A stretch of 64,000 nucleotides of DNA from NCBI GenBank assembly GCA_964556755.1, contig CAZKXI010000002.1, positions 88,263 to 152,262 of the forward strand, written 5' to 3'. The first letter of the stretch is position 1; each line of letters starts with the position of its first letter. The notes beneath the pieces are model-generated. The model saw only the letters and a list, made by a program, of their open reading frames with translations. It ran no database searches and was not told the DNA's origin. Made by a program: the position numbers and the translations under genes. Shown in pieces: positions 1,748 through 25,332 of the stretch. The stretch is from an uncultured Eubacteriales bacterium (GTDB taxonomy: Bacteria; Acidobacteriota; Aminicenantia; Aminicenantales; UBA4085).

Positions 1748-4038
1748 ATGCCCCGGCCCGCCGCATCCTGGTCTCCGGTGTGGTCCAGGGCGTCGGCTTC
1801 CGGCCCTTCATCCATCGCCTGGCCGGGCGGCTCGGCCTGGCCGGCTGGGTCCAGAACACGGCCGCCGGCGTCGAGATCCATATCGAGGGGCCTTCGGCCG
1901 CGGCGCTGGACGGCTTTCTCCGGGCTCTCCGGACCGAGGCCCCGCCGCTGGCCGTCATCGAGGAGGCCGCGGTCCGCCCGGTCCGCGGCGAAGGCCTGAC
2001 CGGATTCGAGGTCCGGGCGTCCCGCGGCGGCGAGGCTTTCGTCTTCATCTCGCCCGACATCTCGGTCTGCGACGCCTGCCGGCGCGACATGGCGGATCCC
2101 CGCGACCGCCGCTACCGCTACCCCTTCACCAACTGCACGGACTGCGGCCCCCGCTACACCATCGTCCGCTCCCTGCCCTATGACCGTCCGGCCACGACCA
2201 TGGCCGCATTTCCCATGTGCCCCGACTGCGCCAGGGAGTACGCCGATCCCGGCGACCGCCGCCACCATGCCCAGCCGACCGCCTGCCCGGTCTGCGGGCC
2301 TTCGATCCGGCTGCGCCGATCGGGCTCGGCCCGGGCCCTCCCCGGCGGCGTCGAAGCGGCGGCCCGGCTGATCCGAAGCGGGCGCATCGTGGCGGTCAAG
2401 GGACTGGGCGGCTTCCACCTGGTCTGCGATCCGCGCAATCCCCGGGCGATCTCCCGCCTGCGCACAATCAAGCAGCGCTCGCGCAAGCCCTTGGCCCTGA
2501 TGGCCCGCGACATGGCCGCCGTGCGGAGGATCGCCCGTGTCTCCCCCCTCGAAGCGGCGCTTCTCCAATCGCCCCGCCGGCCCATCGTCCTGCTGCGCAA
2601 GAGGGTGGATCTGCCGGGCATCGCCCCCGGCTTGGGGGAAGTCGGGATCATGCTGCCCTACACGCCGCTTCACGTCCTGCTGCTCGAGAGCCTCGACCTG
2701 GTGGCGGCCACGAGCTCCAACCCCAAGGACGCCCCGATCATGAAGGACGAGACGGAGGGCATCGACGCCCTCTGCGACTATGTCCTCGGGCACGACCGCC
2801 CGATCCACATGCGAGCGGACGACTCGGTCCTCAAGGTCGTCCTGGGGGCGCCGCTCTTCATCCGCCGGGCCCGCGGCTATGTCCCGGAGCCCCTGCGTCT
2901 CCCGCCCGGCCTCGACCGCGGCCGTCAGGTCCTGGCCGTGGGAGCCGAGCTCAAGGACACCATCTCGGTGGTCAAGAACGGCCGCCTGGTCACCAGTCCA
3001 TTCCTGGGCGACTTGGACGAGTACCGCAATAGGCGCTACTTCGAGGAGACGGTCGCTCACCTTCTCGGGCTCTTCTCCGTTCGGCCGGAGGCGGTCGCTT
3101 CCGATCTGCATCCCGACTTTCACGCCGTCCGCTGGGCCGAGCGCTTCGCCCGGCGCGCGGGCATCCCCCACTTCCGCGTCCAACACCATCACGCCCATGT
3201 CCTGGCCGCCCTTCTTGAGAACGGCGTCCCGGCCGGGACGAGGGTTCTTGGAGCCGCCTTCGACGGCTACGGCTACGGGGCGGATGGATCGGCCTGGGGA
3301 GCGGAGCTTCTGGCCGCCGACTATGGGAGCTTCCGGCGCCTGGCCCATTTCGAGCCCGTGCCCCTTCCCGGCGGCGACCTGGCGGCCAAGCAGCCCTGGC
3401 GGATGGCCCTGGCCTACCTGATGCAAGCGGGATTCTCCGAGGCGGCCGCCGCGGAGGTCCTGAAAGAGGCGCCGGCCGCGGAGCGCAAGGCCGTGGCCGC
3501 CTTGATCGCGCGAGGCGGCTCGCCCCTGTCGTCGAGCTGCGGCCGGCTCTTCGACGCCGTCTCGGCCATCCTCGGCCTGGCTCCCGATCGCAACGACTTC
3601 GAGGCCGAAGCGGCCATGCGCTTGGAAGCCGCGGCGGCCGCGGGACGGGCCGTCCGGCGTTACCCCTACATCGTCTCCTCCGCCGGGCGGGACGGCCGGG
3701 AACCGCGCCGCATCGGCTTCGCGCCGCTCATCCGGGCCGTTGCCGCCGACAAAGCCGCCGGCCTGCCGCCGGCCGATATCGCCGCCTCCTTCCACGCCGC
3801 GCTGGCCCGGATGATCGTCGATATGGCCGAGATGGCCCGGGGCGATCAGGGCCTCGAAACCGTGGCTCTGGTCGGCGGAGTCTTCCTCAACAGAGTCCTC
3901 CTCGAGCGGTCGACGAGAAGGCTCGAAAAGGCCGGCTTCCGCGTCCTTCGCCCGGTCCGGCTCTCGCCCAACGACGAGTCGATCTCCGCCGGCCAGGCCG
4001 CTTACGCCCTGGCCGCGCTCAATCGCCGAGCAGGTTGA
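1744..4038 (+). CDS. hypF: [NiFe]-hydrogenase maturation carbamoyltransferase HypF
   Basis: Acylphosphatase-like N-terminus (VSGVVQGVGFRPF), two CxxC...CxxC zinc-finger pairs (FTNCTDCGPRYT, CPDCAREY..CPVCGP), YrdC-like and Kae1-like C-terminal domains; ATG 1744 overlaps the queH stop (ATGA). Confidence 0.9.
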   Translation: MNAPARRILVSGVVQGVGFRPFIHRLAGRLGLAGWVQNTAAGVEIHIEGPSAAALDGFLRALRTEAPPLAVIEEAAVRPVRGEGLTGFEVRASRGGEAFVFISPDISVCDACRRDMADPRDRRYRYPFTNCTDCGPRYTIVRSLPYDRPATTMAAFPMCPDCAREYADPGDRRHHAQPTACPVCGPSIRLRRSGSARALPGGVEAAARLIRSGRIVAVKGLGGFHLVCDPRNPRAISRLRTIKQRSRKPLALMARDMAAVRRIARVSPLEAALLQSPRRPIVLLRKRVDLPGIAPGLGEVGIMLPYTPLHVLLLESLDLVAATSSNPKDAPIMKDETEGIDALCDYVLGHDRPIHMRADDSVLKVVLGAPLFIRRARGYVPEPLRLPPGLDRGRQVLAVGAELKDTISVVKNGRLVTSPFLGDLDEYRNRRYFEETVAHLLGLFSVRPEAVASDLHPDFHAVRWAERFARRAGIPHFRVQHHHAHVLAALLENGVPAGTRVLGAAFDGYGYGADGSAWGAELLAADYGSFRRLAHFEPVPLPGGDLAAKQPWRMALAYLMQAGFSEAAAAEVLKEAPAAERKAVAALIARGGSPLSSSCGRLFDAVSAILGLAPDRNDFEAEAAMRLEAAAAAGRAVRRYPYIVSSAGRDGREPRRIGFAPLIRAVAADKAAGLPPADIAASFHAALARMIVDMAEMARGDQGLETVALVGGVFLNRVLLERSTRRLEKAGFRVLRPVRLSPNDESISAGQAAYALAALNRRAG

Positions 4039-4873
4039 ATCCCAGGCCGTCCCGATCGGGCGCCGGGCCGCCCTTCCCCTCCCCCGTCGACGTTGCCTTG
4101 GGAGAGGCCGCGCCCGGAGCGGAGAGCTTGAGCTTGATCCCCCCGCTGGCGGCCAAGAGGAGATTGACCAGGCAGGCCAGAACGATCCCGGCCAGGCCGA
4201 GGCCCAGGATGCCCGTCGCGGCCCCGGCCAGGCCGTCGATGAGCGCGCCCAGGAGCTTGCCCTGCTGGCCGGCTATCGCTTCCGGAAGACGGGACGCCGC
4301 GGCCGCCGGCAGGGAGCCCGTCGCTCCGGCGAAGACACCATAGGCGGCGCCCGCGAGGCCGCCCAGCGCGCCCATGAACCGGAAGAGAGAGGCGGGATTC
4401 AAAGAGCGCATGATATAGACGCCGTCGCGGACGGGGAGCGATTCGTCCAGAGGGATGATCTCCACGGTCTTGGCCTCCGATCCCCTGGGCTCGCAGCGGG
4501 GGCAGATCAGGAGGGGCTTCTCCAGGGGACCGCCGCAGTCGGGGCAGCGGTCCGGCGCGCCTTCCGCGGGACCCTCCAGGCTTCCGCCGCAGCGGCCGCA
4601 AGTCCCGGCTCCCTCCTTGTTCTCATGGCCGCAGAAGAGGCAGACCGGACCCTTGTCCTTCGAGATCGGGGGATCGGAGATGACCCAGTCCCGGCCGTCG
4701 AAGAAGTACCACTTGCCCGTCTGGGCGCCGATCATCCAGTACCGCCCCTGGGCGTCCTTCAGGCGAAGCTTCTTCATCTCGTCGATGAACTGCTGGCGCG
4801 ACAGATCGCCGGCCTGGAACCTCTTCTTCAGCTCATCGAACGTCTCAGCCGCGCTCTTGAACGGATCCCGCAT
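4019..4873 (-). CDS. hypothetical protein: SHOCT-like N-terminus, Cys-rich zinc-ribbon region, Gly-zipper membrane C-terminus
   Basis: ORF 284 aa; N-terminal LKKRFQAGDLSRQQFIDEMKKL resembles SHOCT; CxxC pairs (CLFCGHEN..CGRCGG, CPDCGG..CPRC); GxxxG-rich hydrophobic tail; 3' end overlaps hypF end by 20 nt (convergent). Confidence 0.5.
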   Translation of the reverse strand: MRDPFKSAAETFDELKKRFQAGDLSRQQFIDEMKKLRLKDAQGRYWMIGAQTGKWYFFDGRDWVISDPPISKDKGPVCLFCGHENKEGAGTCGRCGGSLEGPAEGAPDRCPDCGGPLEKPLLICPRCEPRGSEAKTVEIIPLDESLPVRDGVYIMRSLNPASLFRFMGALGGLAGAAYGVFAGATGSLPAAAASRLPEAIAGQQGKLLGALIDGLAGAATGILGLGLAGIVLACLVNLLLAASGGIKLKLSAPGAASPKATSTGEGKGGPAPDRDGLGFNLLGD

Positions 4874-5073
4874 GGCCTTCTCTCCCCGAGCCGGCTTCCC
4901 GGCGCAAACCGTGGATTTTCAGACAGTTCATATCTCGCTGATAATAGTGATTTTAAGGTGGCGCCGAAAACCTGTGCAAACCGTCGTAAGTTGAGCAATT
5001 CGGCCTGAATCGGTCTTCCCGCGGCTGGACATATCCACAATTTTTCCACACTTTCTGTGCAAAAGTCCAGCCG

Positions 5074-6054
5074 TCACCGCAGCCCCAGCTCGCCGAGCAA
5101 ATCCATCAGATCGAGGCCCTCGACCGGAGCCGGGATGAAGCAGAGGACGAAGATCGCGACCAAGGCCGCGGCCACGATCGTCCGGCCCCGCCCCAGAGGG
5201 GAGGGCTCGTCCCAGACGCGCGGGTGCTTGAGTCCCAAGACCAGAATGAGGAGTCCCCAGACCCACCAGCCCAGCCAGAACAGCGCCCCCATGACCAGGA
5301 AGAAGACAAGGAAGATTTTCGCCACGTAGCGCGCCCGCGGGCCCAAGACGGCGTAGGCGACATGGCCGCCGTCCAGCTGTCCCAAGGGAAGGAGATTCAA
5401 AGCCGTCACCAGCATGCCCACCCAACCGGCGAAGGCGACCGGATGGAGGATGACATCGAATCCCGGGCCCGTCCCGCGCAGCGTCAGGGCGGTGAGGATG
5501 CGGACGATGAGCGGCTCGCCGAAGACGATGGCCTCGCTGCGCGGCAGGGCCGGGACGACCTTGGACCAAGCCAAGCCGATGGCCAAGGCCGCCAGGGCGG
5601 GCAGGAACCCGGCCAGCGGCCCGGCGGCCCCGATATCGAACAGCTGCCGCTTGCGGGTGATGGGATCGCGGATCTTGATGAAGGCGCCCATGGTCCCGAT
5701 CAGGGTCGGGGCCGGGACGAAGAAGGGCAGCGTGGCGCTGATCCCGTAGCGTCGGCAGGCCCCATAGTGGCCCATCTCGTGGGCCGTCAGGATGAGCATC
5801 AGCACGGCCGCATAGAGGAGGGCCAGGCCGATCGCCCGCGGGTCCCGAAGGGCGGCCCGCAGGCCGCCTTCGAGGAGAGCCGGGCTGGGGCGCCCGGCCG
5901 CCAGATAGCCGACGCCCCAGTCCAGTCCGACCAGGAAAGCCGTTCCGGCCGTCAGGAGGAAGAGCAGGGCGTTGAGCCAGGGACGATCCTTGGCGAAGAG
6001 GCTCCACCTCCGGCGGATCCGGACGGGAGCGGCGACCGGCGGTTGGGGATCCAT
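5074..6054 (-). CDS. site-2 protease family (M50) membrane metalloprotease
   Basis: HEMGH zinc motif in a TM helix, multiple TM segments, LNLLPLGQLDGGH motif typical of M50. Confidence 0.75.
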   Translation of the reverse strand: MDPQPPVAAPVRIRRRWSLFAKDRPWLNALLFLLTAGTAFLVGLDWGVGYLAAGRPSPALLEGGLRAALRDPRAIGLALLYAAVLMLILTAHEMGHYGACRRYGISATLPFFVPAPTLIGTMGAFIKIRDPITRKRQLFDIGAAGPLAGFLPALAALAIGLAWSKVVPALPRSEAIVFGEPLIVRILTALTLRGTGPGFDVILHPVAFAGWVGMLVTALNLLPLGQLDGGHVAYAVLGPRARYVAKIFLVFFLVMGALFWLGWWVWGLLILVLGLKHPRVWDEPSPLGRGRTIVAAALVAIFVLCFIPAPVEGLDLMDLLGELGLR

Positions 6055-6117
6055 GGGCGCAAAAAAGCCCAGGAGGAAGCGGACTTCCTCCTGGGCCTTG
6101 GGGAGGGCGGGTGCGGA

Positions 6118-6369
6118 TCAGCCCTTCAGCTTCTTGTGCTTGGCTTCCAGGGCCTCGCGGGTCTCGACGTGATCGGGGTCGGGAACGCAGGAGTCGACCG
6201 GGCAGACGGCCGCGCACTGGGACGAGTCGTGGCTGCCCACGCACTCCGTGCACTTCTCGGGATCGATGACGTAGCGCTCGTCGCCGGCCGTGATGGCCTG
6301 GTTCGGGCACTCGGGCTCGCAGGCGCCGCAGTTGATGCATTCCTCGGTGATCTTGTAAGCCATGTTCAT
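6118..6369 (-). CDS. fdx: 2x[4Fe-4S] ferredoxin
   Basis: [20 protein letters not shown] ... [18 protein letters not shown]: two CxxCxxCxxxCP clusters. Confidence 0.8.
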
Positions 6370-6432: not shown

Positions 6433-7089
6433 TCACTGGGAGGCGTCCAGCTTGCTCGCCCTTAGGCCGGCATCGTAGCCGAAGTAGGACTGCGCGTATT
6501 CGGTCTGGACGCGCCGGAAGAGGGCCAAGGCGCCGGCCTTGTCTCCCTTCTTCTCCAAGGCCTCGGCCTTATGGAAAAGGACCGCATCCAGGACGTAGTC
6601 CTTGGGCTTGGCGTCCTCGATGGCTTGCAGGATCTTCAGACCCCCGTCGATGTCGCCTTTGAGGACGGCCACTTGGGCGGCCAGCTCCTTGGCCTGATAG
6701 TAGAAGAAATCCTTGGGCGCGTCCTTCAGCCCGGCTAAGACCGCGGCAGCTTTATCCAGATCGCCGCTCTCGACCCAGTGCGAGGCCAGCTGGGTGGCGG
6801 CCACGCGGGCGTATTTGCCCTTCTTGGCCAGGGCCTCCAGCGCGGCCGCGTTGCCGGGCGTCTTATCCAGCCCGTTGCGCAGCTCCAGGATCCGGCCCAG
6901 CTCGGCGCTGGACGATCGCGTCTGGGCTCCGCGAAGGAAGAACAGCCCGCCGAGAAGGACGGCCAGGCCGGCCAGGACGGCCAGGCCGATCAGGGCCTCC
7001 TGGCGCCAGGACTCGAAGGAGGCCATGATCCGGCCGAATATCGATACGAACTCGTCTTCTTTGAGCTTCTTCTTGATCTCGCGTTTCAT
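6433..7089 (-). CDS. TPR-repeat membrane-anchored protein (YfgM/UPF0070-like)
   Basis: Lys-rich N-terminus, single TM (IGLAVLAGLAVLLGGLFFL), Ala/Leu/Lys-rich TPR-like repeats. Confidence 0.5.
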   Translation of the reverse strand: MKREIKKKLKEDEFVSIFGRIMASFESWRQEALIGLAVLAGLAVLLGGLFFLRGAQTRSSSAELGRILELRNGLDKTPGNAAALEALAKKGKYARVAATQLASHWVESGDLDKAAAVLAGLKDAPKDFFYYQAKELAAQVAVLKGDIDGGLKILQAIEDAKPKDYVLDAVLFHKAEALEKKGDKAGALALFRRVQTEYAQSYFGYDAGLRASKLDASQ

Positions 7090-7165
7090 GGAATGCTTCC
7101 TCTCGGCCGCTTCGGACCAGCGCCCTTTTTACCATAACCGGCCCGGAAAGGGAAGCCGGCCCGCC

Positions 7166-7193
7166 TTGACATCACGGCCCGATTCCCTAAGAT
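7166..7193 (+). promoter_or_regulatory. sigma70-like promoter candidate (TTGACA-N16-TAAGAT) upstream of the HprK-like kinase
   Basis: TTGACA 7166-7171, TAAGAT 7188-7193, in the divergent intergenic region 7090-7210; the predicted TSS would fall at or after the GGAGG RBS (7194-7198), so either a leaderless-like transcript or a coincidental match. Confidence 0.25.
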
Positions 7194-7210
7194 GGAGGCG
7201 GATCCGCGCC

Positions 7211-8134
7211 ATGTCCGCTCCCTCCGCCGTCCGCTTCTTCCGCGTCGCGGGCATCACCCTGCAAGTGGCTTGCCAGGGGCCCGGACCGGCCCTGCCCTGG
7301 CATCCCAAGCTGGCCGCGTTCGAGGTCGACGGCCCCGGCCCGGACACGGTCGTCATCCGGCACCATCGATCGGCCTTTCCCGGGTCCCCGGACGGGCCGG
7401 GTCCGGCGGTCTACGACAGCCCTCCCTACCGGGTCCATGCCGCGGGCGACGGCTGGATCTACCGCATCGGCGGCGGGGGGGATGGGCGCGTCCAGACCGC
7501 CCTCTTCGCCGGAGACTACAGCCGGGCCGATATCTATACGCCGGAGCCCCTGGCGGTCCCCGAGCAGGGCTTCGAAGCCCTGACCCTGCTGCCGACGGAC
7601 CAGGTCCTCCTGGCTCCCCTGCTGGCCCTTCGGGGCGGCTGCCTCCTGCACGCCGCGGGTGTGGTCCGGGCCGGGGCCGGATGGCTCTTCGCCGGCCATT
7701 CGACGGCCGGAAAGTCCACGATCACGCGGATGATGAAGGGAAGGGCCGAGATCCTCTGCGACGACCGCATCGCCCTGCGCCCCGACGGGAGCGGGGGCTT
7801 CCGCATCCACGGGACGTGGAGCCACGGCGACGTGCCCGACATCTCGCCCTCCTCGGCCCCGTTGACGGAGCTGTTCCTGCTGCGCCAATCCGAAGGGGAT
7901 TCGGCGGCGCCCCTGCCCGACCGCCGGGACGTGGCCCGCAGCCTTCTCGATCTGGTCATCAAGCCGTTGGCCACGACCGCTTGGTGGAGCCTGACCCTGG
8001 AGGCGATCGACCGGATCTCCTCTTCGCTGCGGGCTTGGGATCTGAGCTTCAGCCTGAGCGGGGGAGTCCTTCAAGTCCTTGACCGGATCGAAGCCGGGGA
8101 GCGGGGATTTGACTTTTCCGGCCCGAGCCGCTAA
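7211..8134 (+). CDS. HPr kinase C-terminal domain-like P-loop serine kinase (HprK-related kinase)
   Basis: Walker A FAGHSTAGKST (nt ~7693-7722) followed by AEILCDDRIAL, matching the HprK GxSGxGKS...H-RLVADD arrangement; first ATG after the divergent TPR gene, GGAGG RBS at 7194-7198; TAA 8132-8134. Confidence 0.7.
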   Translation: MSAPSAVRFFRVAGITLQVACQGPGPALPWHPKLAAFEVDGPGPDTVVIRHHRSAFPGSPDGPGPAVYDSPPYRVHAAGDGWIYRIGGGGDGRVQTALFAGDYSRADIYTPEPLAVPEQGFEALTLLPTDQVLLAPLLALRGGCLLHAAGVVRAGAGWLFAGHSTAGKSTITRMMKGRAEILCDDRIALRPDGSGGFRIHGTWSHGDVPDISPSSAPLTELFLLRQSEGDSAAPLPDRRDVARSLLDLVIKPLATTAWWSLTLEAIDRISSSLRAWDLSFSLSGGVLQVLDRIEAGERGFDFSGPSR

Positions 8135-8163
8135 GTTAGGGTCAGATCGCCGAGGAGAAGCCT

Positions 8164-8334
8164 ATGAAGAAGCCGTGGACCACCCCCGAGCTTATCGTCC
8201 TGGTGCGCGTCCAGGCCAACGAGATGGTCCTCGGGACCTGCAAATCCCAGTTCGGCCTGGGGCCGGCCCGGACCAAGACCGGCTGCATGAACGTGACCGG
8301 CGACAGGGCCTGCCAGGGCCACGATAAGAGTTGA
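8164..8334 (+). CDS. 56-aa precursor-like peptide (MKKPWTTPELIVLVRVQANEMVLGTCKSQFGLGPARTKTGCMNVTGDRACQGHDKS); putative RiPP/lasso-like precursor with C-terminal Ser
   Basis: Not in ORF track (<60 aa). GAGGAG RBS 8152-8157, 6 nt before ATG 8164; starts 30 nt after the kinase stop; leader-like W-x-x-P-x-L motif, Thr at -2 before Cys41; putative core CMNVTGDRACQGHDKS has Cys1, Asp7 and a C-terminal Ser; followed by a GC hairpin 8357-8372. Confidence 0.55.
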   Translation: MKKPWTTPELIVLVRVQANEMVLGTCKSQFGLGPARTKTGCMNVTGDRACQGHDKS

Positions 8335-8431
8335 CCGGCCTCGCAGCCGCCTCTCTCCCGCCCCCGGGCGGGGAAATTGACTTCCCCATTTCCCTCCCCT
8401 AGAATAGGCCTATCTTTCGCTTCGGGAAACC

Positions 8432-11251
8432 ATGGATACCATCGGCAAATACCAGATCATCGAAGAGCTCGGCCGCGGCGGGATGGGCGTCATCTACAAA
8501 GCCCTCGATCCGGACATCCACCGCACGGTCGCCATCAAGGTCATCCGCAAGGAGCTTCTGTCCGGAAGCGGGCCGCAGAGCGGCAAGGCCTTGAAGCGAT
8601 TCATGGTCGAAGCCCAGGCCGCCGGGCGGCTGACCCACCCCCACATCGCCACCATCTACGAGGTCGGGCGCCACGAGGACCAGACCTTCATCGTCATGCA
8701 GTACATCGCCGGCCAGAGCCTGCGCAAGCGCCTGGACGCCGGCCGGGCCTTCTCGGCCGAGGAAGCCGCGGACTTGGCCGTCCCGATCTGCCAGGCGCTG
8801 GACTACGCCCACCGTAGCGGCGTCGTTCACCGCGATATCAAACCCGACAACATCCTCCTGGACGGGGACGGCAAGCCCTACCTGGTCGACTTCGGCATCG
8901 CCACCGTGGAATCCGTCGACGTGACCAAGACCAGCACGGTCATGGCCACGCCGGCCTACCAGTCGCCCGAACAAGTCTTGGGCGAGCCGATCGACGCCCG
9001 CTCCGACATCTTCTCCTTCGGCATCGTCCTTTACGAAATGCTGGCCGGCCAGCGGCCCTTCGCCGGCCAGAACTCGACGACCGTGGCCCTGAAGATCGTC
9101 AAGGAAGAGCCGCCCGAGCTTGTGCCCAAGGCCGGCGCCCTGCCGGAGGGATTCGCCGCGGTCGTCCTGAGAGCCCTGGCCAAGCGGCCCGAGGACCGCT
9201 GGGCTTCGGCCGGCGAGATGGCCGAGGCGATCCAGGAGAGCGCCCGCTCGGAGCAGGAGACGACCGTCATCAAGACCCAGCCGAGGGCCACGCTGCCGCG
9301 GACGGCGGCCCGCCGCAAGCCCCGCGCCGGGAGATGGCCGGCTTGGCTCCGCTCGCCGGCCGGAACGGCGGCCGGAATCGCCATCGCCGCCGCGGCCCTT
9401 TTCGGCTTGCTGGTCCTGGGCCGCAAGCTGCTCGTGCGCCCGGCTTCCTTCGAGAACTTGATCACGGTCGCCCCCTTCGCCTATAAGACCCGGGACCTGC
9501 CGGACCGCCTCATCGAGTTCGCTCTGGACCGGGCTCTGACCGCATCAACCCGCATCCCCGTTCTCAGCGGCGACGGCCGCGAGCTGGCGGCGGGGGGCGA
9601 TGGCATCCGGGCCCGCAAGCCGCTGGCCAGGATCTCGGGGACGGTGGTCCCCACCCTGACCGGATTCGACGTCGATGTGACGATCGTCCATAAGGGAGTC
9701 AAGAGCCGCAAGGCCTTCCCCTGTAAGGGCAGCCTCGACTTGATCTCGAGCCGAATCGAAGAGATCCTGGCCTTCCTCAAGTCCCGCTCGGATGGGGACA
9801 TCGGCTCGATCGAGGGCGGGCGGAGCTTTGCCGCCATCTGCACCGCCAACTGGGATGCCTTGACCCACTACCTGAAGGCCCGGGCGGCCTGGGACAAGCT
9901 TGAGTCCAAGACGGCCGCGGCCGAGCTCAAGACGGCCCTGGAGTACGACCCGGATTTCGCCCTGGCCCGGCTGAAAGCGGCCGAAGTGGATTTCTTCCAG
10001 GACGATCGCGTGGTCGCCCAGGCCAACGCCGAGGAGGCTCTGGCCGATGCCGGGCGATTGATCGGCTACGACACGCTCCGCCTGAAAGCCCTCCTGGCCC
10101 GCATCGAGTCCCGGCCGGCCGAGGAGAGGGGCTTCCTGATGCAGCTGAAGGAGGCTTTTCCCGGCAGCCGCGAGTACCTCTACGAGTTCGCCGAATCCTA
10201 TTTCCACACCGGCGACGGAGCCGAGGCCATCCCCTACTACGCCAAGGCCCTGGATTTGGACGGGTCCTATGCCCTGGCCCACAACCACATCGCCTTCTGC
10301 TACGCTTGGACGGGCGACCACGCCAAGGCGGACGAGCATTTCCGCCGCTACGTCGAGCTGGACAAGACGGCCAACTCCTACGATTCCATGGCCTCCGGCC
10401 TGATGTTTGCCGGCCGCTACGCGGAAGCGGTCGCGGCCCTCGACAAGGGCAAGGCCCTGGACGACGGCCTCTACTATCTCTACTCCAACTACGCCACGAA
10501 CTTCGCCCTGACCGGAGCCCTGGCCAAGGCCGAGGAGAGCCTGCGCCGGGAAGCCGACGCCGCGACCGGCGACTCCTCCCGCTTCGACATCCAGTTCGAG
10601 AGGGCCCACATCGCCGCCCTGCGGGGCGACGCGGCCAAGGCCGAGGAGCTGCTGCGGCCCGCCCTGGAATACTACGGGGGCAAGGCCTTCGCCGACCGCC
10701 TGGACGAGTCGCCCATCCGCCCGATCTGGCTCTCCGGCTGCCTGGCCGCCAAGCGCGGCGACAAAGGACGGCTGCGGGCGTCCATCGCCGATCTGGCCCG
10801 GCGGGCCGCGGCCAAGGGGCTGAACGCGGCCAACTACTTCCCGGTCCTCAAGTTCCTGGCCCACCTGAGGGCGTGGCAGGCCCGCCTGGAGAGGGACAGG
10901 GACGGCGTCCTGCGCGAGGTCGAGGAGGCCCAGCGCTTCGAGCCCAAGATGGGATACTGGACCTCGCCTTTCGACCGGGCCTACTTCCTGGACGAGTACG
11001 CCCGGCTCATCCAGGAGGTCGACCCGGCTTCGGCCAAGCCCAAGGAGCTTCTGGGAGGCGTCCTGGCCTACAACGCCAGCTATCCTCCGGCCCTGCTGCG
11101 GATGGCCCGTCTCCTGAAAGCGGAGGGAGACGCGGACGGCGCCAAGCGCCTGCACGACCGAGCCCGCGCCGTCCTGGCCGGCGCGGACGCCGATTCTCTC
11201 CTGGCCAAGGAGCTCGGCGCCGTGGGAACGATCCTAGGAGTCCGGCCATGA
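8432..11251 (+). CDS. Hanks-type Ser/Thr protein kinase with TM segment and large C-terminal TPR-repeat domain
   Basis: GRGGMGVIYKA, AIK, HRDIKPDNILL, DFGIA, SPE kinase subdomains; hydrophobic helix AAGIAIAAAALFGLLVLG; ~600 aa TPR-like repeats. Confidence 0.85.
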   Translation: MDTIGKYQIIEELGRGGMGVIYKALDPDIHRTVAIKVIRKELLSGSGPQSGKALKRFMVEAQAAGRLTHPHIATIYEVGRHEDQTFIVMQYIAGQSLRKRLDAGRAFSAEEAADLAVPICQALDYAHRSGVVHRDIKPDNILLDGDGKPYLVDFGIATVESVDVTKTSTVMATPAYQSPEQVLGEPIDARSDIFSFGIVLYEMLAGQRPFAGQNSTTVALKIVKEEPPELVPKAGALPEGFAAVVLRALAKRPEDRWASAGEMAEAIQESARSEQETTVIKTQPRATLPRTAARRKPRAGRWPAWLRSPAGTAAGIAIAAAALFGLLVLGRKLLVRPASFENLITVAPFAYKTRDLPDRLIEFALDRALTASTRIPVLSGDGRELAAGGDGIRARKPLARISGTVVPTLTGFDVDVTIVHKGVKSRKAFPCKGSLDLISSRIEEILAFLKSRSDGDIGSIEGGRSFAAICTANWDALTHYLKARAAWDKLESKTAAAELKTALEYDPDFALARLKAAEVDFFQDDRVVAQANAEEALADAGRLIGYDTLRLKALLARIESRPAEERGFLMQLKEAFPGSREYLYEFAESYFHTGDGAEAIPYYAKALDLDGSYALAHNHIAFCYAWTGDHAKADEHFRRYVELDKTANSYDSMASGLMFAGRYAEAVAALDKGKALDDGLYYLYSNYATNFALTGALAKAEESLRREADAATGDSSRFDIQFERAHIAALRGDAAKAEELLRPALEYYGGKAFADRLDESPIRPIWLSGCLAAKRGDKGRLRASIADLARRAAAKGLNAANYFPVLKFLAHLRAWQARLERDRDGVLREVEEAQRFEPKMGYWTSPFDRAYFLDEYARLIQEVDPASAKPKELLGGVLAYNASYPPALLRMARLLKAEGDADGAKRLHDRARAVLAGADADSLLAKELGAVGTILGVRP

Positions 11252-12171
11252 ACCCTTCCCTGCATCTCGAGATTCCCGGCCGCGAGCCCGTCATCTACGA
11301 AGTCGCCAACACGACGGGGATCGGGCGGGCCTCGTCCAACCAGATCTGCCTCAAGGAGGACGCCGCCGCCTCGCGCCAGCACGCCCTGATCCGCCGCCAG
11401 GGCGAGCAGGAGTACTACCTCATCGACATGGGCTCGGCCAACGGCACGCTGCTGAACTCCAAGCTGATCATCGGCCCGACCCTGCTGCGCAACGGCGATC
11501 TCATCCAGGTCGGCGAGACGACCTTCCGGTTCGAGCTCCCGGGCCCCTCGCCCGAGGAGGTCGCCAAGCTCAGCCAGACGATATGCGAGAAGACCCAGAT
11601 GGCCGTCCATCTGCGGACCATGGTCATTTTGGTCTGCGACATCCGCAATTTTACCCGCATCGGGGAGCTCCTGACGCCGGACCAGCTGGCCCGCTTCCTG
11701 GGCTCCTGGTTCCGCCAGTCCCAGGAGATCATCGCCTCCCAGGGCGGCGTCGTGGACAAGTACATCGGCGACGCCGTGATGGCCTACTGGCCGGTCTCCT
11801 CCCAATCTCCCACGGAAGCGGCCGAGAACGCGGTCAACGCCGCGTTCCGCATCCAAGCCCTGGCCCGGACGACGACCCTTCCGGAGGGGACCGACTTCCC
11901 CTTCGCGGTCGGGGTCGGCATCAACCAGGGCCTCGTCTCCAGCGGCAACGTCGGGACCCAGTCCCAGCGCGACATGACCATCATGGGCGACGCGGTGACT
12001 CTGGCCTTCCGCCTGGAGTCGGCCTGCAAGGTCAAAGGCATGCCGATCGTGGTGGGAGCGGACATCCACCGGGTCCTGGGCGACAAGTTCAAGTTCATCG
12101 CCCTCGGCCAGGTCAAGCTCAAGGGCAAGACGACCAGCCCGGAGGCCTACGGCCTGAAAGTCGAAGGCTGA
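11248..12171 (+). CDS. FHA-domain class III adenylate/guanylate cyclase
   Basis: Only C-terminal 307 aa of ORF 10306..12171 are real: N-terminal FHA (SRQHALIRRQGEQEYYLIDMGSANGTLLN), then CHD cyclase (ILVCDIRNFT, DKYIGDAVMAYW, GNVGTQ..DMTIMGDAVTLAFRLE); ATG 11248 overlaps kinase stop (ATGA). Confidence 0.8.
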   Translation: MNPSLHLEIPGREPVIYEVANTTGIGRASSNQICLKEDAAASRQHALIRRQGEQEYYLIDMGSANGTLLNSKLIIGPTLLRNGDLIQVGETTFRFELPGPSPEEVAKLSQTICEKTQMAVHLRTMVILVCDIRNFTRIGELLTPDQLARFLGSWFRQSQEIIASQGGVVDKYIGDAVMAYWPVSSQSPTEAAENAVNAAFRIQALARTTTLPEGTDFPFAVGVGINQGLVSSGNVGTQSQRDMTIMGDAVTLAFRLESACKVKGMPIVVGADIHRVLGDKFKFIALGQVKLKGKTTSPEAYGLKVEG

Positions 12172-14956: not shown

Positions 14957-16105
14957 TTAATTATAGCGTATTGAATCACTTGGGAGCCGCTTGATTTTTA
15001 CGGTGTCGACTTTTTGACGGGATGGATCCATGATTTCGCCCAGCCGCTCAACGGCCCGGCGCATGTTCTCCGGCGTCGGATGGCAATAGCGCATGGTCGT
15101 TTGAATCGACGCATGCCCGAGCACCTTGGAGACCGTGACCAGGTCGACGCCGGCCTCGACCATCTTCGAGGCCGCGGTATGCCTCAGGTCATGGAAGCGG
15201 ACTCCTGTGATCCCCGGATCATCCTCATCGTTGAGATCCGTCTTCGCCTTCCTGCAGGCCGCATGGAAGGCCGTCTTCACGTCCTGGACTGGCTTCGTCG
15301 GATCGGCGCCGGGGAAGACGTATTCCCCCTTCCTGGGAAGGACGGCCAGGGCCTCCATGACAGCGCTGTTGACGGGCACCTTGCGGCCCCTGCCGCTCTT
15401 GGAGTCCTCGATATTGATATAGCCGCGGACCAGGTCGACGTTTGTCCATCGGAGGCCCAGGATCTCGCTCCGCCGCATGCCCGTGTTCAAGGCCACTATG
15501 AGGACAGGGCGGAACGTGTTCGACGCCGACCGGAGGAGCCGATGAGCCTCTCCCGCCGACAGGATCCGCTCTCGAGCGTTGGCCTCTTTCAGCCTTCGGA
15601 CGCGTCGGATGGGGTTCTTCTCGATTCTCCCCCACTCCTCAGCCTTGTTGAAGAGGGTCTTCAGGCATGTCAGCTCTCGGTTGACCGTCGCCGGCGAGAT
15701 CGGAGCGGACTTCTTCGCGTTGTAGTGCTTGACCCGCTCGGCCCGCCGGCCGGCCTTGAACCGCTCCACGTCCTCGGAGCCGATCCCCTGGAGGGAGCGC
15801 CCGGAGAAGTAGCGCTTGAGGTTGTCCAGAAGGATCTCGTCCCGCTTCCAGGAGCGCTTGTTCTGCTTACAGTAGACCTCGAGGAATTCGTCTGCGAAGG
15901 CATCGAAGGGAACGGGATCCCCGCCAGCCTTCTTGAAGCCGAGCCGCTCATTCAGGAGCTCGATGCGGAGCTTCGCCAGGGCGTTCCGGGCCTGTTCCTT
16001 AGTGTATCCCCCGAGCTGACGGATTCGCTTCCCTCGGAAGGTGAAGTCGATATGCCACCTCCCATCCTTTTGGATTAGGTTCCGGTCATTCTTCGGTTTG
16101 ACCAT
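14957..16105 (-). CDS. int: tyrosine-type site-specific integrase (phage integrase family)
   Basis: C-terminal catalytic region RFHDLRHTAAS..LGHASIQTTMRYCH (R..HxxR..Y) and N-terminal SAM-like/arm-binding region; lies immediately inside attL. Confidence 0.85.
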   Translation of the reverse strand: MVKPKNDRNLIQKDGRWHIDFTFRGKRIRQLGGYTKEQARNALAKLRIELLNERLGFKKAGGDPVPFDAFADEFLEVYCKQNKRSWKRDEILLDNLKRYFSGRSLQGIGSEDVERFKAGRRAERVKHYNAKKSAPISPATVNRELTCLKTLFNKAEEWGRIEKNPIRRVRRLKEANARERILSAGEAHRLLRSASNTFRPVLIVALNTGMRRSEILGLRWTNVDLVRGYINIEDSKSGRGRKVPVNSAVMEALAVLPRKGEYVFPGADPTKPVQDVKTAFHAACRKAKTDLNDEDDPGITGVRFHDLRHTAASKMVEAGVDLVTVSKVLGHASIQTTMRYCHPTPENMRRAVERLGEIMDPSRQKVDTVKIKRLPSDSIRYN

Positions 16106-16315
16106 CGCGTCCTCCCCCTCCCGCTCACGCGTTAGGATTGGGAGAGGGAGCCGAAGCCCCCTCTCCTGGTCGACCTTGTCGCCCTCGCCTTACCTCTTCC
16201 AGCACCTTGACGGGCAAGGATTCATCAACGCGGATCCGGCCGAACAGCAGATAATTCTCGATCATCATCTGAATCATCTCCGACTTCCGTTCGTCCATGA
16301 TCCGGATTGAACCTC

Positions 16316-16498
16316 TCAGGCCGTCTTCCCGGCCTTGACGCGAGTGATGGCCTTGCCCAGCCCGTCCGCGATAGTCTGGAGGCGGGTCCGCTCCGAAGGG
16401 CGCATGATCCAAGACAGCTCTTCGATCATGCCCAAAATTGCCCGTCTCATTTCCTCGGCCACATCGACCAGCCCTGCCATCGCCTCAGGATCTGTCAT
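16316..16498 (-). CDS. small hypothetical phage-like protein
   Basis: 60-aa ORF overlapping the next gene's end by 14 nt; no domain recognised. Confidence 0.25.
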   Translation of the reverse strand: MTDPEAMAGLVDVAEEMRRAILGMIEELSWIMRPSERTRLQTIADGLGKAITRVKAGKTA

Positions 16499-16928
16499 TG
16501 TTCCCCGTCCCGGCTACGTAGACCTTGCCGAGCCGGCTGATGGCGCCGTGTGCTTCGACATAGGCGGTCAGCAGCTCAGCTGCAGCCTTGGCCTGATCGA
16601 TGGAGAGGACAAGCTCGAGCCCGCCCCCGGCCTTGTCCTTGAAGAAGACGGCTGTGGTTCCGTCGACGGTTCGCTCCCCGTCTGTCGATACCTCGGACGA
16701 GATGGTGGCCTCAGCGTCGCAGAGCCAGGCCATGATATCGGCCTTCTCCAGCGCCGGCTTGCAGTCCTCGAACTTGATCTCGAGATCGAGCTCGATTCCA
16801 GGGCCATCCTCAACCTCGAGGGCAAGCCCCTTTCCCCCATCGACCAGGGCCCGAGGGCCCTTCGCCTTGATTGCCCCGCCGAAGCGGAATGCTCCCGCGG
16901 CTCCAGTTGGTTCTGCTTTCTGTTTCAT
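16485..16928 (-). CDS. hypothetical phage-like protein
   Basis: Start at internal Met (MKQKAEPTG..) with AAGAGG RBS; 147 aa; no family recognised. Confidence 0.4.
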   Translation of the reverse strand: MKQKAEPTGAAGAFRFGGAIKAKGPRALVDGGKGLALEVEDGPGIELDLEIKFEDCKPALEKADIMAWLCDAEATISSEVSTDGERTVDGTTAVFFKDKAGGGLELVLSIDQAKAAAELLTAYVEAHGAISRLGKVYVAGTGNNDRS

Positions 16929-16947
16929 GAATGACCTCTTGGGAGCT

Positions 16948-17253
16948 TCAGCTGGCAGCCGTAGCGGCCCGGCCATCCAGGAACAGGTCCGACAATCCAT
17001 CCAGGATTTCAGCAGCCAAAAGCCGACGCGACGCGGTCGCCATATCCGCGCTCATTTCGCGCCATACCTTGCCGAAGAGCAGCATCCCCCTCCTTGCTTC
17101 AGCGCTGTCCCTGAGCATCCGAGCGAACTCCTCCGCCGCCAGCTGCAGCTTCTCGTTGCCCGGCATGGGCCCCCGGGCAGACGCTACCCCCACTTTGCGC
17201 CGGCGCTTGATTGCCGGAGCGGCCTTGACCACCGCGGACTTCTTGGACTTCAT
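16948..17253 (-). CDS. hypothetical Lys/Arg-rich small protein
   Basis: Start at MKSKKSAVV with AGGAGG RBS; basic N-terminus. Confidence 0.4.
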   Translation of the reverse strand: MKSKKSAVVKAAPAIKRRRKVGVASARGPMPGNEKLQLAAEEFARMLRDSAEARRGMLLFGKVWREMSADMATASRRLLAAEILDGLSDLFLDGRAATAAS

Positions 17254-17275
17254 CGATCCTCCTTGAAGGGAAAAT

Positions 17276-17482
17276 TTATTTACGACGCCTCGAGGCGCTC
17301 GTAGCGGTTTCTTCGACGCGGCCTTGGAGGTACTGACCAAGGTCGGCCGGATCGATTCGGACCAGACGGCCGACGCGGTACACCTTCAACCGGCCGGAAT
17401 TGATGATCTTGTACGCAGTCGCTCGACTTACCTTGAGGATCCGCCGCAAATCCTGCGGACTTAACAGCTCCATCGTGTTCAT
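17276..17482 (-). CDS. excisionase/AlpA-like helix-turn-helix DNA-binding protein
   Basis: MNTMELLSPQDLRRILKVSRATAYKIINSGRLKVYRVGRLVRI: HTH typical of the excisionase-family DNA-binding domain; AGGAGAA RBS. Confidence 0.55.
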   Translation of the reverse strand: MNTMELLSPQDLRRILKVSRATAYKIINSGRLKVYRVGRLVRIDPADLGQYLQGRVEETATSASRRRK

Positions 17483-17542
17483 CGTTTTCTCCTGTGGAGT
17501 GATGGGGGCGGTCCCGCCCGCCCCCTTCCTCCCTTCCATTGC

Positions 17543-17788
17543 CTAGCGTCCCCGGACCGGGATCAGATAGCCGCAGAGGGCCCTCCGGTTCCCGCGTCGG
17601 ATCAGCACCGAATGACGGAGGGAACGAAACATCCCGCCGTCTTCGTGGAGCGCCTCGAAGTGAGCGCGGAAGCGATGAGCAGCGGGCTCCGATCCGCGCA
17701 TCACCTCGGCCTGGAGGCAAGCCATGCACTCCTCGGCCTGGAAGTCCGCCGGGATTGGCTCCGGCCGGCGCTTCCTTCGTCCGAACAT
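17543..17788 (-). CDS. hypothetical protein
   Basis: 81-aa ORF in island, Cys/His-containing, no family recognised. Confidence 0.25.
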   Translation of the reverse strand: MFGRRKRRPEPIPADFQAEECMACLQAEVMRGSEPAAHRFRAHFEALHEDGGMFRSLRHSVLIRRGNRRALCGYLIPVRGR

Positions 17789-17933
17789 GTCAGACCTCCT
17801 CAGGGCAAGTCTTATGACCAGCCCTCTGTATTCCTTACTATAACATTATATCACTTAATAGCACTTTGTCAAGTGGCATTGTGGCGTCGGATTCGCCTTC
17901 GTTGTAGAATCAATCCTGCGCTGGGATTAGAAA

Positions 17934-18140
17934 ATGCCCGACAAGAAAACCTCAAATGATCTCATGACGAAACAAGAGGTCATGGCATATCTCAGGATCA
18001 GCCATCAGACCCTCTTCCGGATGATGAAATCGGGAGCTTTCCCCTACTTCAAGCTCGAGCGGAAGGTACTGTTCCGGAAGTCTGACGTCGACGCTTACCT
18101 GGAAGCCCACCTAGTGACCCCGACGCGGTCCCGGAGATAG
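17934..18140 (+). CDS. excisionase-family helix-turn-helix DNA-binding protein
   Basis: LMTKQEVMAYLRISHQTLFRMMKSGAFPYFKLERKVLFRKSDVDAYL: canonical excisionase-family HTH; low-GC context. Confidence 0.6.
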   Translation: MPDKKTSNDLMTKQEVMAYLRISHQTLFRMMKSGAFPYFKLERKVLFRKSDVDAYLEAHLVTPTRSRR

Positions 18141-18550
18141 CTCCTATCTTCCTTTGCCCCCTGCCTCCTTTGGCCGAGCTCCTGGAGATCGCCAGTCCTG
18201 GGCCGCAGGATGCACGCTGCGGGCCTCTGTGGCCGATAACTTGAGCCGGGGATGGGTAGGGTACAGGGGAGGCGGAGGGCAAAGCCAGCAGTGCTGGATT
18301 TGCCGGCTCAGGAATTGAGCGCGGGAGCTTTCCTTCTTCGTCAGGCCAAGTTCGGATAAGGTCGGGGCGTCATCACGCGGTTCCACGTAGGCACCGCGTG
18401 GCCCCGTTTTCGTTCCGCCGGCCTTTGCGCCCTGCGCCCGATCTGTAGCGGCCAGCAACTCCCCGAGCTTGCGCTCGGCCCGTAGGGCGTTCGGCCAGGG
18501 CGTCCTCGCCGGCAGGACAAGAGCGGGCGCTTGACCGGTCATCGCTCCGG

Positions 18551-20659: not shown

Positions 20660-20711
20660 GATCTTGCTCCTGTGCTTGGTGTCTGACTGTCATCCGATTC
20701 CGGGCAACGGC

Positions 20712-21170
20712 TCACCCGCGGCCCAGGATTTTCATGATCTCATCGTCGAAATACTTCTTCAGGAGATCGCGCTTCGCCGTGTCTGAGAGGTTCATGAACA
20801 TCCGCTGCGGGATCTTCCCGCCGGCTGTGCCCATGTTGTGGAAGTAGGCGATCAGCTCCATGCGCCCCTTGACGGATACCCGGCCATGATGCGGACTCAG
20901 TACCTCCGTCAGGATGGAATCCAGCATCTCGCCGGTCCTCCGGAGGTCGACGCTTCCGGCGCTGACCCCCTTGCGCTTCGCGTAGGCCTCTGAGTAGGGC
21001 TTGAACTTCTTCCCCATGTAATCGACCCCTCGAGCGGTCTTGCGGAGGATGATCCTCTTCACCTCTTCGACGAGCTTCTGCATGGGTTCGGCGGACTCCA
21101 GGAATTCCTCGATCCGCCGCAGCTGGCCGATGGACGCGGCCAGCCCGCGGATGTTGACAGAATCGCCCAC
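20712..21170 (-). CDS. phage virion morphogenesis (tail completion, Mu gpG-like) protein
   Basis: 152 aa; size and composition resemble the phage virion morphogenesis family; adjacent to tape measure. Confidence 0.4.
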   Translation of the reverse strand: MGDSVNIRGLAASIGQLRRIEEFLESAEPMQKLVEEVKRIILRKTARGVDYMGKKFKPYSEAYAKRKGVSAGSVDLRRTGEMLDSILTEVLSPHHGRVSVKGRMELIAYFHNMGTAGGKIPQRMFMNLSDTAKRDLLKKYFDDEIMKILGRG

Positions 21171-21195
21171 CTGATCGCTCCGCTGCCGTTGCGCT

Positions 21196-21522
21196 TCAGT
21201 CGGAACGATCCGCCCGCGAGAAATGGAACTGAATCAGGCCCTGAAAGTCCCGGTCCCCGATCTGGTGCAGATCGTGGAGCACGGCCGCCCTCCGGTCCGC
21301 GAAGTCCCGATTCAGGGCCGTCAGCTCGTTCTTCGCCTCGGAGATCGCGCCGAAGTCCGTCACGTCCGGATCCGCGATCGTCGCCCGGCATCGTCTCATC
21401 TTGGCCAGGATGACGTCGCATTCCTTGACGGCCGCCTCGATCTTCTGCTTCTTCTCCTCTTCCCCCGCCGTTATCCCCGCCGCGATTCTTTCAAGTGGGT
21501 CCATGTTGTTCTCTCCTATCAT
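21196..21522 (-). CDS. hypothetical phage protein
   Basis: Acidic coiled-coil-like 100-aa ORF. Confidence 0.3.
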   Translation of the reverse strand: MIGENNMDPLERIAAGITAGEEEKKQKIEAAVKECDVILAKMRRCRATIADPDVTDFGAISEAKNELTALNRDFADRRAAVLHDLHQIGDRDFQGLIQFHFSRADRSD

Positions 21523-21755
21523 TCCTTGTTCGTCTGCCCCTGCCCGCCGGTGCTCGTATCGACCCGAAGGCAGACACCGCTCCGGATCAGGGCATCCCAG
21601 GCCGCCCGGTCGACCGCCGTCTCGATGGTCTCGAAGATCGCCAGCGGCCGCGGTGCATGCCTTGTCATGTCCACCAGGAAGCGCCGGCCGTCCATGAGGC
21701 CGACGTGGATCTGGCCGTCATCGTCGAGACGCAGCTCGACAGCCTTGGTGCGCAT
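21519..21755 (-). CDS. hypothetical phage protein
   Basis: 78-aa ORF, 4-nt overlap with the downstream gene. Confidence 0.3.
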   Translation of the reverse strand: MRTKAVELRLDDDGQIHVGLMDGRRFLVDMTRHAPRPLAIFETIETAVDRAAWDALIRSGVCLRVDTSTGGQGQTNKE

Positions 21756-21765
21756 GGCCGACCAG

Positions 21766-22164
21766 TTACCCGATCAGCGCTTTCGCCGCCGCGTCATAGT
21801 CGGGCGTCACGTCCAGCCAGCCCAGCTGCCGAATCCCGTTCAGCGCAGTCAGCCGGTCGGTCGTGCTCCCGACGCCGTTGGAGAAGTCGACTCCGGCAAC
21901 GGCCCCGTTGAGGCCGGCGCCGCCCTGCAAGTGCTGAACGTAGTAGACGACGGGCCGGCCGTCGATCAGCCGCACGTGGCCGGGGACGTACATCTCGGCC
22001 AGGGAAGAGGTCGGCCCGGCGCAGGTGTCCTCGCAGCCGTGACTGTGAACCGCCGTCCATGCCGTGTAGCGGGAGGACGTGGTCCCCATTCCGCCGACGA
22101 AGTCGATCCCCCAGGCCGTCCCGGTGTACCCGGCAACCGGATGCTTCAGAGTGTAGGTCTCCAT
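21766..22164 (-). CDS. hypothetical phage protein (G[IV]DF..G.G.TSS motif, paralog of 22181-22537)
   Basis: Start METYTLKHP at 22164 with GGAGG RBS; motif GIDFVGGMGTTSS. Confidence 0.4.
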   Translation of the reverse strand: METYTLKHPVAGYTGTAWGIDFVGGMGTTSSRYTAWTAVHSHGCEDTCAGPTSSLAEMYVPGHVRLIDGRPVVYYVQHLQGGAGLNGAVAGVDFSNGVGSTTDRLTALNGIRQLGWLDVTPDYDAAAKALIG

Positions 22165-22180
22165 GATAAACCTCCAATGT

Positions 22181-25319: not shown

Positions 25320-25332
25320 GACTTGGGCCAGA

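Follow-up and report, generated by a model that had tools for sequence, protein, structure and literature searches.

The locus

The window analysed here is a stretch of 64,000 nucleotides (64 kb) from contig CAZKXI010000002.1 of an uncultured bacterium of the Aminicenantes lineage UBA4085. At 8164-8334 of its forward strand it carries a 56-codon open reading frame (ORF), placed directly downstream of a gene for a P-loop protein (7241-8134, +). In a preliminary description, made from the sequence alone, the two had been taken for a lasso peptide precursor and an HprK-like kinase. The analysis reported here places the P-loop protein in the ScmC family and the peptide in a large, unnamed family of precursors of the RiPP type (ribosomally made peptides that carry post-translational modifications), whose members in other lineages are encoded in radical-SAM (rSAM) cassettes; the two-gene locus of the window is probably a reduced derivative of such a cassette.

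The peptide ORF translates into MKKPWTTPELIVLVRVQANEMVLGTCKSQFGLGPARTKTGCMNVTGDRACQGHDKS; coordinates and translation agree with those first quoted. A ribosome-binding site, GAGGAG, is present as described at 8152-8157 (+), 6 nt upstream of the ATG. The adjacency to the preceding gene also holds, the distance from its stop codon (8132-8134) to the peptide ATG being 29 nt rather than 30. GC content at codon positions 1/2/3 (0.54/0.49/0.91) resembles that of the neighbouring genes (0.67-0.74/0.40-0.55/0.86-0.90), and overlapping alternative ORFs do not have a high third-position GC. Searched as a single sequence, the peptide finds only 5 close relatives, 79-93% identical; NCBI, JGI, ENA and Logan contigs have its gene among their called ones, with the same neighbours around it, and the surrounding synteny is kept in the loci numbered L001-L007, L010 and L011, which include Candidatus Aminicenantes bacterium UBA4085 (L010; GCA_002383325.1) and the Acidobacteriota metagenome-assembled genome (MAG) STD1_136 (L011). 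Reactors degrading terephthalate and hydrocarbon reactors also contain close relatives (JGI 3300002821; ERZ922797, a hydrocarbon metagenome, PRJNA183510). When L001, L007 and L011 are compared with the window, dN/dS of the peptide gene lies at 0.08-0.16, dS being close to 1 or saturated; a purine-rich equivalent of the ribosome-binding site is kept in all three, unlike the intergenic DNA flanking the gene, which is not conserved. Third-position GC, syntenic homologues, dN/dS and the conserved ribosome-binding site thus indicate more than a chance ORF: by these sequence criteria, it is a real, translated and selectively maintained gene, under purifying selection in the syntenic Aminicenantes/Acidobacteriota relatives.

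The upstream protein

The gene preceding the peptide is contained in a long ORF (6713-8134), whose true start is placed near 7241, in line with the N-termini of homologous proteins. The resulting 297-aa protein (7241-8134, +) has a Walker A motif, GHSTAGKST, and retains H137, D174-D175-R176 and G191-x-W193-S194-H195-G196: all of the 39 columns invariant in an alignment of 23 sequences from many phyla, which comprise these residues and the stretch G152-H-S-x-A-G-K-S159, are kept. Its best match in NCBIfam is ScmC of the SynChlorMet cassette (1.2e-11; 44.5 bits, with a cut-off of 125); a match to HprK-related kinase B (HprK_rel_B, 4.4e-7) is also found, and the precomputed Pfam domain PF27840, ScmC, is present on all 686 detected homologues. 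Against PDB sequences, the ScmC profile gives only marginal HprK matches (E 0.04), amid noise from the P-loops of ABC transporters, and a 91-aa fragment of the protein gives no match; fold searches were therefore needed, and in these the model of the protein matches only PEPCK and HprK/P.

The kinase of the preliminary description is therefore HprK-like at the level of the fold, while the Pfam and NCBIfam matches and the kept motifs assign the protein itself to the ScmC family. HprK/P and ATP-dependent PEPCK share with it the P-loop fold and the Walker A motif; identity is 8-17%, however, the N-terminal beta-rich domain differs, and ScmC-like genes sit by peptide-modification cassettes, whereas HprK/P and PEPCK serve the phosphotransferase system or gluconeogenesis. 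The spacing of the His, the P-loop and the Asp-Asp pair presumably matches that of the catalytic residues of HprK/P.

The precursor family

In the window peptide, a leader-type N-terminal region (aa 1-27, MKKPWTTPELIVLVRVQANEMVLGTCK; 8164-8244, +), with conserved W5, P8, L10, E20, L23, C26 and K27, is followed by a core-type variable region (aa 28-56; 8245-8331, +), where C41 (8284-8286), C50 (8311-8313) and the tail C50-x5-S56 are conserved. The tail reads C50-QGHDK-S56; the codon of the C-terminal Ser56 is at 8329-8331 (+), and the stop codon at 8332-8334.

The leader of the family follows the pattern M-(K)n-W-x-x-P-x-L-[IV]-[IV]-L-x-R-G-x-P-E-E-x-V-L-x-x-C-K. W5, P8 and C26 are invariant, and L10 is at least 90% conserved: the aromatic-x-x-P-x-L element, to which attention had been drawn from the window alone, falls in the most conserved part of the family. 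The core features a hypervariable stretch, where G-P is frequent, and 2-3 Cys beyond that of the leader; after the hypervariable stretch come a conserved Cys, most often paired as C-x-x-C, and the tail C-x5-[Ser/Thr]-COOH, which is fixed. All residues that are invariant or at least 90% conserved (W5, P8, L10, E20, L23, C26-K27, C41, C50) are found in the window peptide, which ends in C-x5-Ser, as the family tail requires.

A profile hidden Markov model (HMM), built from 54 precursors of full cassettes and leaving out the clade of the window, matches the window peptide end to end (52.8 bits, E=1.5e-15), the sole match among 982 six-frame segments of the window. From the 5 close relatives found with the single sequence, the profile search, performed on 1.84 billion cluster representatives (clusters at 50% identity), extends the family to 3,454 members at E<=1e-3, 1,132 of them at E<=1e-10. 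Small ORFs accompany the kinase-like gene in related genomes: besides the syntenic loci, precursors are detected by profile HMM in 83 of the 105 loci, in 1-11 copies each, and 124 of 130 locus precursors are on the same strand as the ScmC-like gene. The emphasis first put on the C-terminal Ser is borne out by the complete locus precursors, 125 of 130 ending in Ser/Thr, and by an independent set of database members (232 out of 239, the exceptions being mostly truncated fragments); in 210 of these 239 the end is C-x5-[ST]-COOH. In one locus, from an uncultured Dehalococcoidia (L022, 10962-18597), 11 HMM-detected precursors are present, with nearly identical leaders and diverse cores.

Family members carrying a source name are all called 'hypothetical protein', bar one stray JGI label (UPF0371). 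No Pfam domain is recorded on them, and neither Pfam nor NCBIfam gives a match to the peptide, even at E<=1; the family surfaced only when the surroundings of distant ScmC homologues were inspected. As judged from the profile matches, the peptide belongs to a large, unnamed and unannotated family of RiPP-type precursors. That such a family can be defined for the ScmC-associated cassette goes beyond current annotation.

Radical-SAM cassettes in other lineages

ScmC-like relatives were found in 302 stretches by a genome scan, using one genome per species, and the best 78 loci were fetched. The bacterial ones come from Omnitrophota, Aminicenantes, Desulfobacterota, Planctomycetota, Chloroflexota, WOR-3 and Bacillota, the archaeal ones from Methanothrix and Methanoregula. 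Two metagenomic contigs, L008 and L009, found around distant ScmC homologues (37-58% identity), feature the gene order rSAM, ScmC, rSAM, PqqD, a 170-180-aa peptidase-like protein, rSAM, and 1-2 small ORFs, whose leaders align with the window peptide. When the L008 proteins are used in tblastn searches, the same cassette is found in virtually every locus of sufficient length, and in about 70 other loci such peptides go with it. The full cassette is composed of 2-3 radical-SAM/SPASM enzymes, a PqqD-like protein, an S26/S24-like peptidase, the ScmC-like protein and precursors on the same strand, often in multiple copies.

The three rSAM proteins of the cassette match NCBIfam SPASM maturases of the ScmE, ScmF, mycofactocin, AlbA and StsB type, the small protein matches PqqD and ScmD, and the 179-aa protein matches signal peptidase I, in all cases far below equivalog cut-offs. 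The PqqD-like protein is of the RRE (RiPP recognition element) type, and its position next to the family relatives agrees with the leader recognition proposed in the preliminary description.

The number of Cys in the precursors tracks the number of rSAM enzymes. Cassettes without an rSAM1 orthologue feature two-Cys cores only (9 out of 9), while in those with rSAM1 precursors mostly have at least 3 Cys after the C-K motif (52 out of 57). These counts point to a separate radical-SAM enzyme for each Cys, the additional Cys of the C-x-x-C pair being the one handled by rSAM1. The window peptide has a two-Cys core, and its spacing from C-K to the first core Cys equals that of the two-Cys paralogue in L009 and L013.

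Some ScmC-like proteins, P0048, P0062 (L039, WOR-3 chromosome CP070680.1) and P0105, are fused, by annotation, to a SPASM-like Cys-rich C-terminal rSAM part, P0048 bearing the name 'radical SAM protein with 4Fe4S-binding SPASM domain'; they may be true fusions or run-ons of gene calls into an overlapping rSAM1 gene.

The two-gene locus

The clade of the window comprises the window itself, L001-L007, L010 (UBA4085), L011 (STD1_136) and a fragment, L088; in it, one precursor comes straight after the ScmC-like gene. The bare pair is shared by all members, even at 53% ScmC identity. Homologues of the rSAM, PqqD and cassette peptidase proteins are absent within ±10 kb in L001-L007, L010 and L011 and from the 64-kb window; the whole window is also devoid of CxxxCxxC-bearing ORFs, and a tblastn search with the cassette PqqD finds nothing in it. 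Among the best 80 of 302 genome matches there is no second ScmC-like locus from UBA4085 or STD1_136. A metagenome scan for further loci of the clade led to one short extra contig, L088, the others being ordinary cassettes.

In a neighbour-joining tree the ScmC sequences of these reduced loci are monophyletic, on branches only slightly longer than the others, and their nearest neighbours are the Aminicenantes full cassettes L008, L013 and L009. The peptide core of the clade is nearly frozen (GTCKSQ.G.GP.....GCM.V.G..ACQG..[KR]S), whereas cores elsewhere are hypervariable, and the peptide is more conserved than the ScmC-like protein (79-93% versus 53-96% identity).

Two sites resembling sigma-70 promoters are found in 1.7 kb, where 0.1 would be expected from shuffled sequences. 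The first, TTGACA-16-TAAGAT (7166-7193, +; 10/12 consensus matches), precedes the ScmC-like gene and, by its consensus, is the probable start of the ScmC-peptide unit. The second, TTGACT-17-TAGAAT (8377-8405, +; 10/12 consensus matches), belongs to the next gene and is kept in L001, L007 and L011. No significant hairpin, as expected for a terminator, is found between the peptide stop and the second site (z -0.64). Since promoter-like sites are located both before and after the pair, the downstream one being conserved, the ScmC-like gene and the peptide gene look like a separate, promoter-bounded two-gene unit.

The gene behind the second promoter encodes, in the window, a large Ser/Thr kinase, which is a neighbour of the pair and not its partner. 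A required functional coupling to it was considered and rejected, L011 being without that kinase; there, for the same reason, the downstream promoter would drive the gene of an FHA-domain cyclase.

In a Desulfobacteraceae locus (L066), the ScmC-like gene (9986-10858) has no rSAM homologue in the 10 kb upstream, and the contig ends 143 bp past the gene: this may be either one more reduced locus or a cassette truncated at the contig end.

Genomic surroundings

The Ser/Thr kinase downstream of the peptide gene (8432-11251, +) is a 939-aa protein of the Hanks type, whose TPR region gives a weak match to NCBIfam TIGR04510, 'putative peptide modification system cyclase' (3.6e-18, 65 bits, with a cut-off of 400). 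It is followed by the gene of a protein with FHA and adenylate/guanylate-cyclase domains (11251-12171, +), which in L011 comes directly after the peptide gene, behind the same conserved promoter. On the other side, a TPR_21-like protein of 218 aa (6433-7089, -), 59-86% identical across the clade, is encoded divergently from the ScmC-like gene; beyond it (4019-6369, -) lie the genes of a small ferredoxin, seen in the syntenic loci, of an M50 protease and of a double-zinc-ribbon protein. These four genes are beside the ScmC-peptide pair in every clade member, a conservation of neighbourhood that carries no evidence of a functional link.

The rest of the window contains housekeeping genes and one block resembling a mobile element. 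This block (14957-28458) has a lower GC content (0.60-0.645, versus 0.67-0.71 in the flanks) and is bordered by a tyrosine-integrase gene (14957-16105, -) and by a tRNA-Arg(CCT) (28384-28458, -). Inside are large ORFs without Pfam match (18551-20689, 20712-21233 and 22527-24215) and an AAA_25 protein (25333-26736). The block is probably an integrated mobile element.

Comparison with known systems

The closest described entity is the SynChlorMet cassette, which is computationally defined (ScmC TIGR04249, ScmD TIGR04248, ScmE TIGR04250, ScmF TIGR04251; Pfam PF27840). ScmC is the best NCBIfam match of the window enzyme, and the full cassettes of the relatives have significant matches, below cut-off, to the rSAM/SPASM proteins ScmE and ScmF and to the PqqD-like ScmD. 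The distance from the cut-offs is considerable: 31-45 bits versus 125 for ScmC (44.5 for the window protein and 30.7 for the L008 homologue, with the equivalog threshold of TIGR04249), about 80 versus 400 for the rSAM proteins, and 29 versus 100 for ScmD. The relatives' cassette differs also by its 2-3 rSAM enzymes, its S26-like peptidase and its defined precursor family. In the window and within ±10 kb in clade members, ScmD, ScmE and ScmF are absent, their distant, sub-cut-off relatives being found only in other lineages. Taken together, the profile scores describe a cassette that is a relative of the curated SynChlorMet set and not a member of it. To our knowledge, the TIGRFAM description of SynChlorMet states that no precursor has been identified. 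A literature search found no paper on the SynChlorMet cassette, and nothing on the leader strings, on an HPr kinase with SPASM proteins, or on radical-SAM RiPPs in Aminicenantes.

The closest functional analogue is the kinase of paeninodin-type lasso pathways (the HPr-kinase homologue PadeK and its relatives), where a small Ser-ending precursor is likewise found beside a P-loop enzyme of the HprK fold; phosphorylation by such a kinase takes place on the linear precursor, at its C-terminal Ser (PMC8498205), and is here the working model for the ScmC-like protein. The relationship between the enzymes is only distant (4e-7 for HprK_rel_B, E 0.04 for the HprK profile). The window differs from these pathways in having no lasso cyclase or protease, no conserved ring acid and no conserved Thr at position -2, and the partner enzymes of the relatives are rSAM/SPASM proteins.

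Sactipeptides and ranthipeptides, RiPPs with thioethers made by radical-SAM/SPASM enzymes, resemble the relatives' cassettes in their Cys-bearing precursors and in a leader of the PqqD/RRE type; the rSAM/SPASM maturases of the relatives weakly match the StsB, AlbA and PapB models, and the Cys count tracks the rSAM count. The differences are the additional HprK-fold protein, the S26-like peptidase, the fixed C-x5-[S/T] C-terminus and, in the window locus, the absence of any rSAM, for a family known here from sequences alone.

Interpretation of the reduced pair

The explanation we favour, and consider probably correct, is that the ScmC-peptide pair was produced by loss of the rest of the cassette, and that the ScmC-like enzyme acts on the peptide. 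In the simplest history, the block of rSAM, PqqD, peptidase and rSAM genes, which in the sister Aminicenantes cassettes is located between ScmC and the precursor, would have been lost, and the rSAM1 gene also deleted in the ancestry of the reduced locus. The ScmC-like enzyme would still act on the peptide as an ATP-dependent phosphotransferase, phosphorylation of the side-chain hydroxyl of the invariant C-terminal Ser56 being the most likely chemistry. This site is proposed by analogy, because the only HprK-type enzymes of RiPP pathways that have been characterized by experiment, homologues of HPr kinase, phosphorylate the C-terminal Ser of linear lasso precursors (PMC8498205). It is proposed also because the C-terminal Ser/Thr is invariant and the ScmC-like gene and the Ser-ending peptide survived together. 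The frozen core suggests that the product has come to serve a fixed function in the cell, rather than acting as a fast-evolving antagonist.

Several observations weigh against this explanation. The assignment of the ScmC-like protein as a kinase derives from its fold, from analogy and from its P-loop. In the reduced clade, strict conservation holds for the leader motif, E20, L23 and the three Cys, which would be expected if the peptide were still processed by a PqqD-like protein and rSAM enzymes whose genes lie elsewhere. The absence of maturases covers the 64-kb window and ±10 kb in the relatives, which are incomplete MAGs, and the promoters are consensus matches only. The C-x5-[S/T] spacing, moreover, could equally reflect a crosslink, made by an rSAM enzyme, between the Cys and the C-terminal residue; alternatively, the tail may undergo phosphorylation, elimination and ring closure.

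The main rival, possible although on the unlikely side, follows from the second of these points: the peptide would be an ordinary precursor of a radical-SAM pathway, whose rSAM/SPASM, PqqD-like and peptidase proteins are encoded elsewhere and act in trans, the ScmC-like protein keeping its normal role. W5, P8, L10, E20, L23, C26-K27, C41 and C50 are fixed in the clade despite saturated synonymous change, and the correspondence between Cys and rSAM numbers in full cassettes suggests that the Cys are rSAM substrates. A cluster split in this way fits poorly, however, with a bare two-gene arrangement shared by the whole clade, ScmC identities as low as 53% included, with the lack of any cassette homologue in 64 kb, and with a core that is frozen in the clade and hypervariable in full cassettes; that no second ScmC-like locus from UBA4085 or STD1_136 is seen among the best 80 of 302 matches is weak evidence in the same direction.

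A bolder form of the cassette-loss explanation, which we hold to be rather unlikely, describes the peptide as a 'domesticated' precursor of an rSAM pathway. After deletion of the rSAM, PqqD and peptidase genes, the two-gene module would be self-sufficient, the ScmC-like enzyme reading the leader and modifying the C-terminal Ser of what would have become a sequence-frozen housekeeping or signalling peptide. The Ser would be phosphorylated, or else phosphorylated, eliminated and ring-closed onto the Cys at -7, in agreement with the fixed C-x5-S spacing.

It is improbable that the peptide, phosphorylated by the ScmC-like protein, feeds the downstream FHA-domain adenylate/guanylate cyclase (and the Ser/Thr kinase) as a signal. 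FHA domains do bind phosphopeptides, in all clade members the FHA-cyclase gene is 3' of the peptide gene (immediately, in L011), and a frozen core would suit a constant protein partner. FHA domains prefer phospho-Thr, however, while the conserved terminal residue is here a Ser; the downstream genes are under their own conserved promoter, the kinase is dispensable in L011, and synteny within a narrow clade may simply be inherited.

The lasso peptide of the preliminary description, to be cut after T39-G40, closed by a Cys41-Asp47 macrolactam and phosphorylated at its C-terminal Ser as in paeninodin, is very improbable and was rejected. The window does feature an aromatic-x-x-P-x-L element, T-G-C, Asp47 and a C-terminal Ser beside an HprK-fold gene, and HPr-kinase homologues of lasso pathways do target such a Ser; what stands of the proposal is the RiPP-type precursor, not the lasso class. 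A B peptidase and an ATP-dependent C cyclase take part in all lasso pathways (PMC8498205), and rings are made of 7-9 residues, closed on Asp or Glu (PMC8498205). No C cyclase (similar to Asn synthetase) is found by Pfam scans of the window ORFs tested, in the precomputed Pfam domains of L001-L007 or in the related cassettes, and no domain of a leader peptidase B (transglutaminase-like) or of a PqqD-like B1 by the same Pfam scans of the window; B peptidases are missing from the related loci too. The residues invoked are not conserved columns: T39, the Thr at -2, is Arg in P0005, and D47, the ring Asp at core position 7, is Ser in P0149 and Tyr in P0005. In class I lasso peptides the ring joins Cys1 to Asp9, not to position 7. 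The proposed boundary between leader and core, G40|C41, lies, as do T39 and D47, where the family alignment is hypervariable, and the leader motif would sit 36 residues ahead of this boundary, the canonical lasso leader being Y-17/P-14/L-12. About 70 homologous peptides, finally, are found in rSAM/SPASM cassettes.

That the ORF is an evolutionary relic, or a chance ORF without function, is hardly credible: the maturase genes are indeed gone from the locus, but the selection analysis (dN/dS 0.08-0.16 at dS near 1), the conserved ribosome-binding site, an intact ScmC-like protein with all family-invariant residues and a peptide core more conserved than that protein (79-93% versus 53-96% identity) contradict it.

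Significance for the ScmC family

A precursor family with thousands of members, for which neither Pfam nor NCBIfam has a model, is now tied to an uncharacterized radical-SAM/SPASM cassette, widespread in uncultivated anaerobic bacteria and methanogenic archaea; a recognizable precursor family being linked to it, the cassette becomes minable and experimentally approachable. The conserved, minimal enzyme-plus-peptide derivative is likewise beyond current annotation. The reduced clade is a natural deletion experiment, where the retained pair points to the substrate of the enzyme and to its probable site. If the ScmC-peptide pair is self-sufficient, it would represent a RiPP pathway of which just a kinase-type enzyme and a conserved peptide are left; were the 'domesticated' precursor real, the ScmC protein family would gain its first function, and a long-missing class of precursors would be defined for a cassette present in 302 species-level genomes of uncultivated anaerobes, archaea included.

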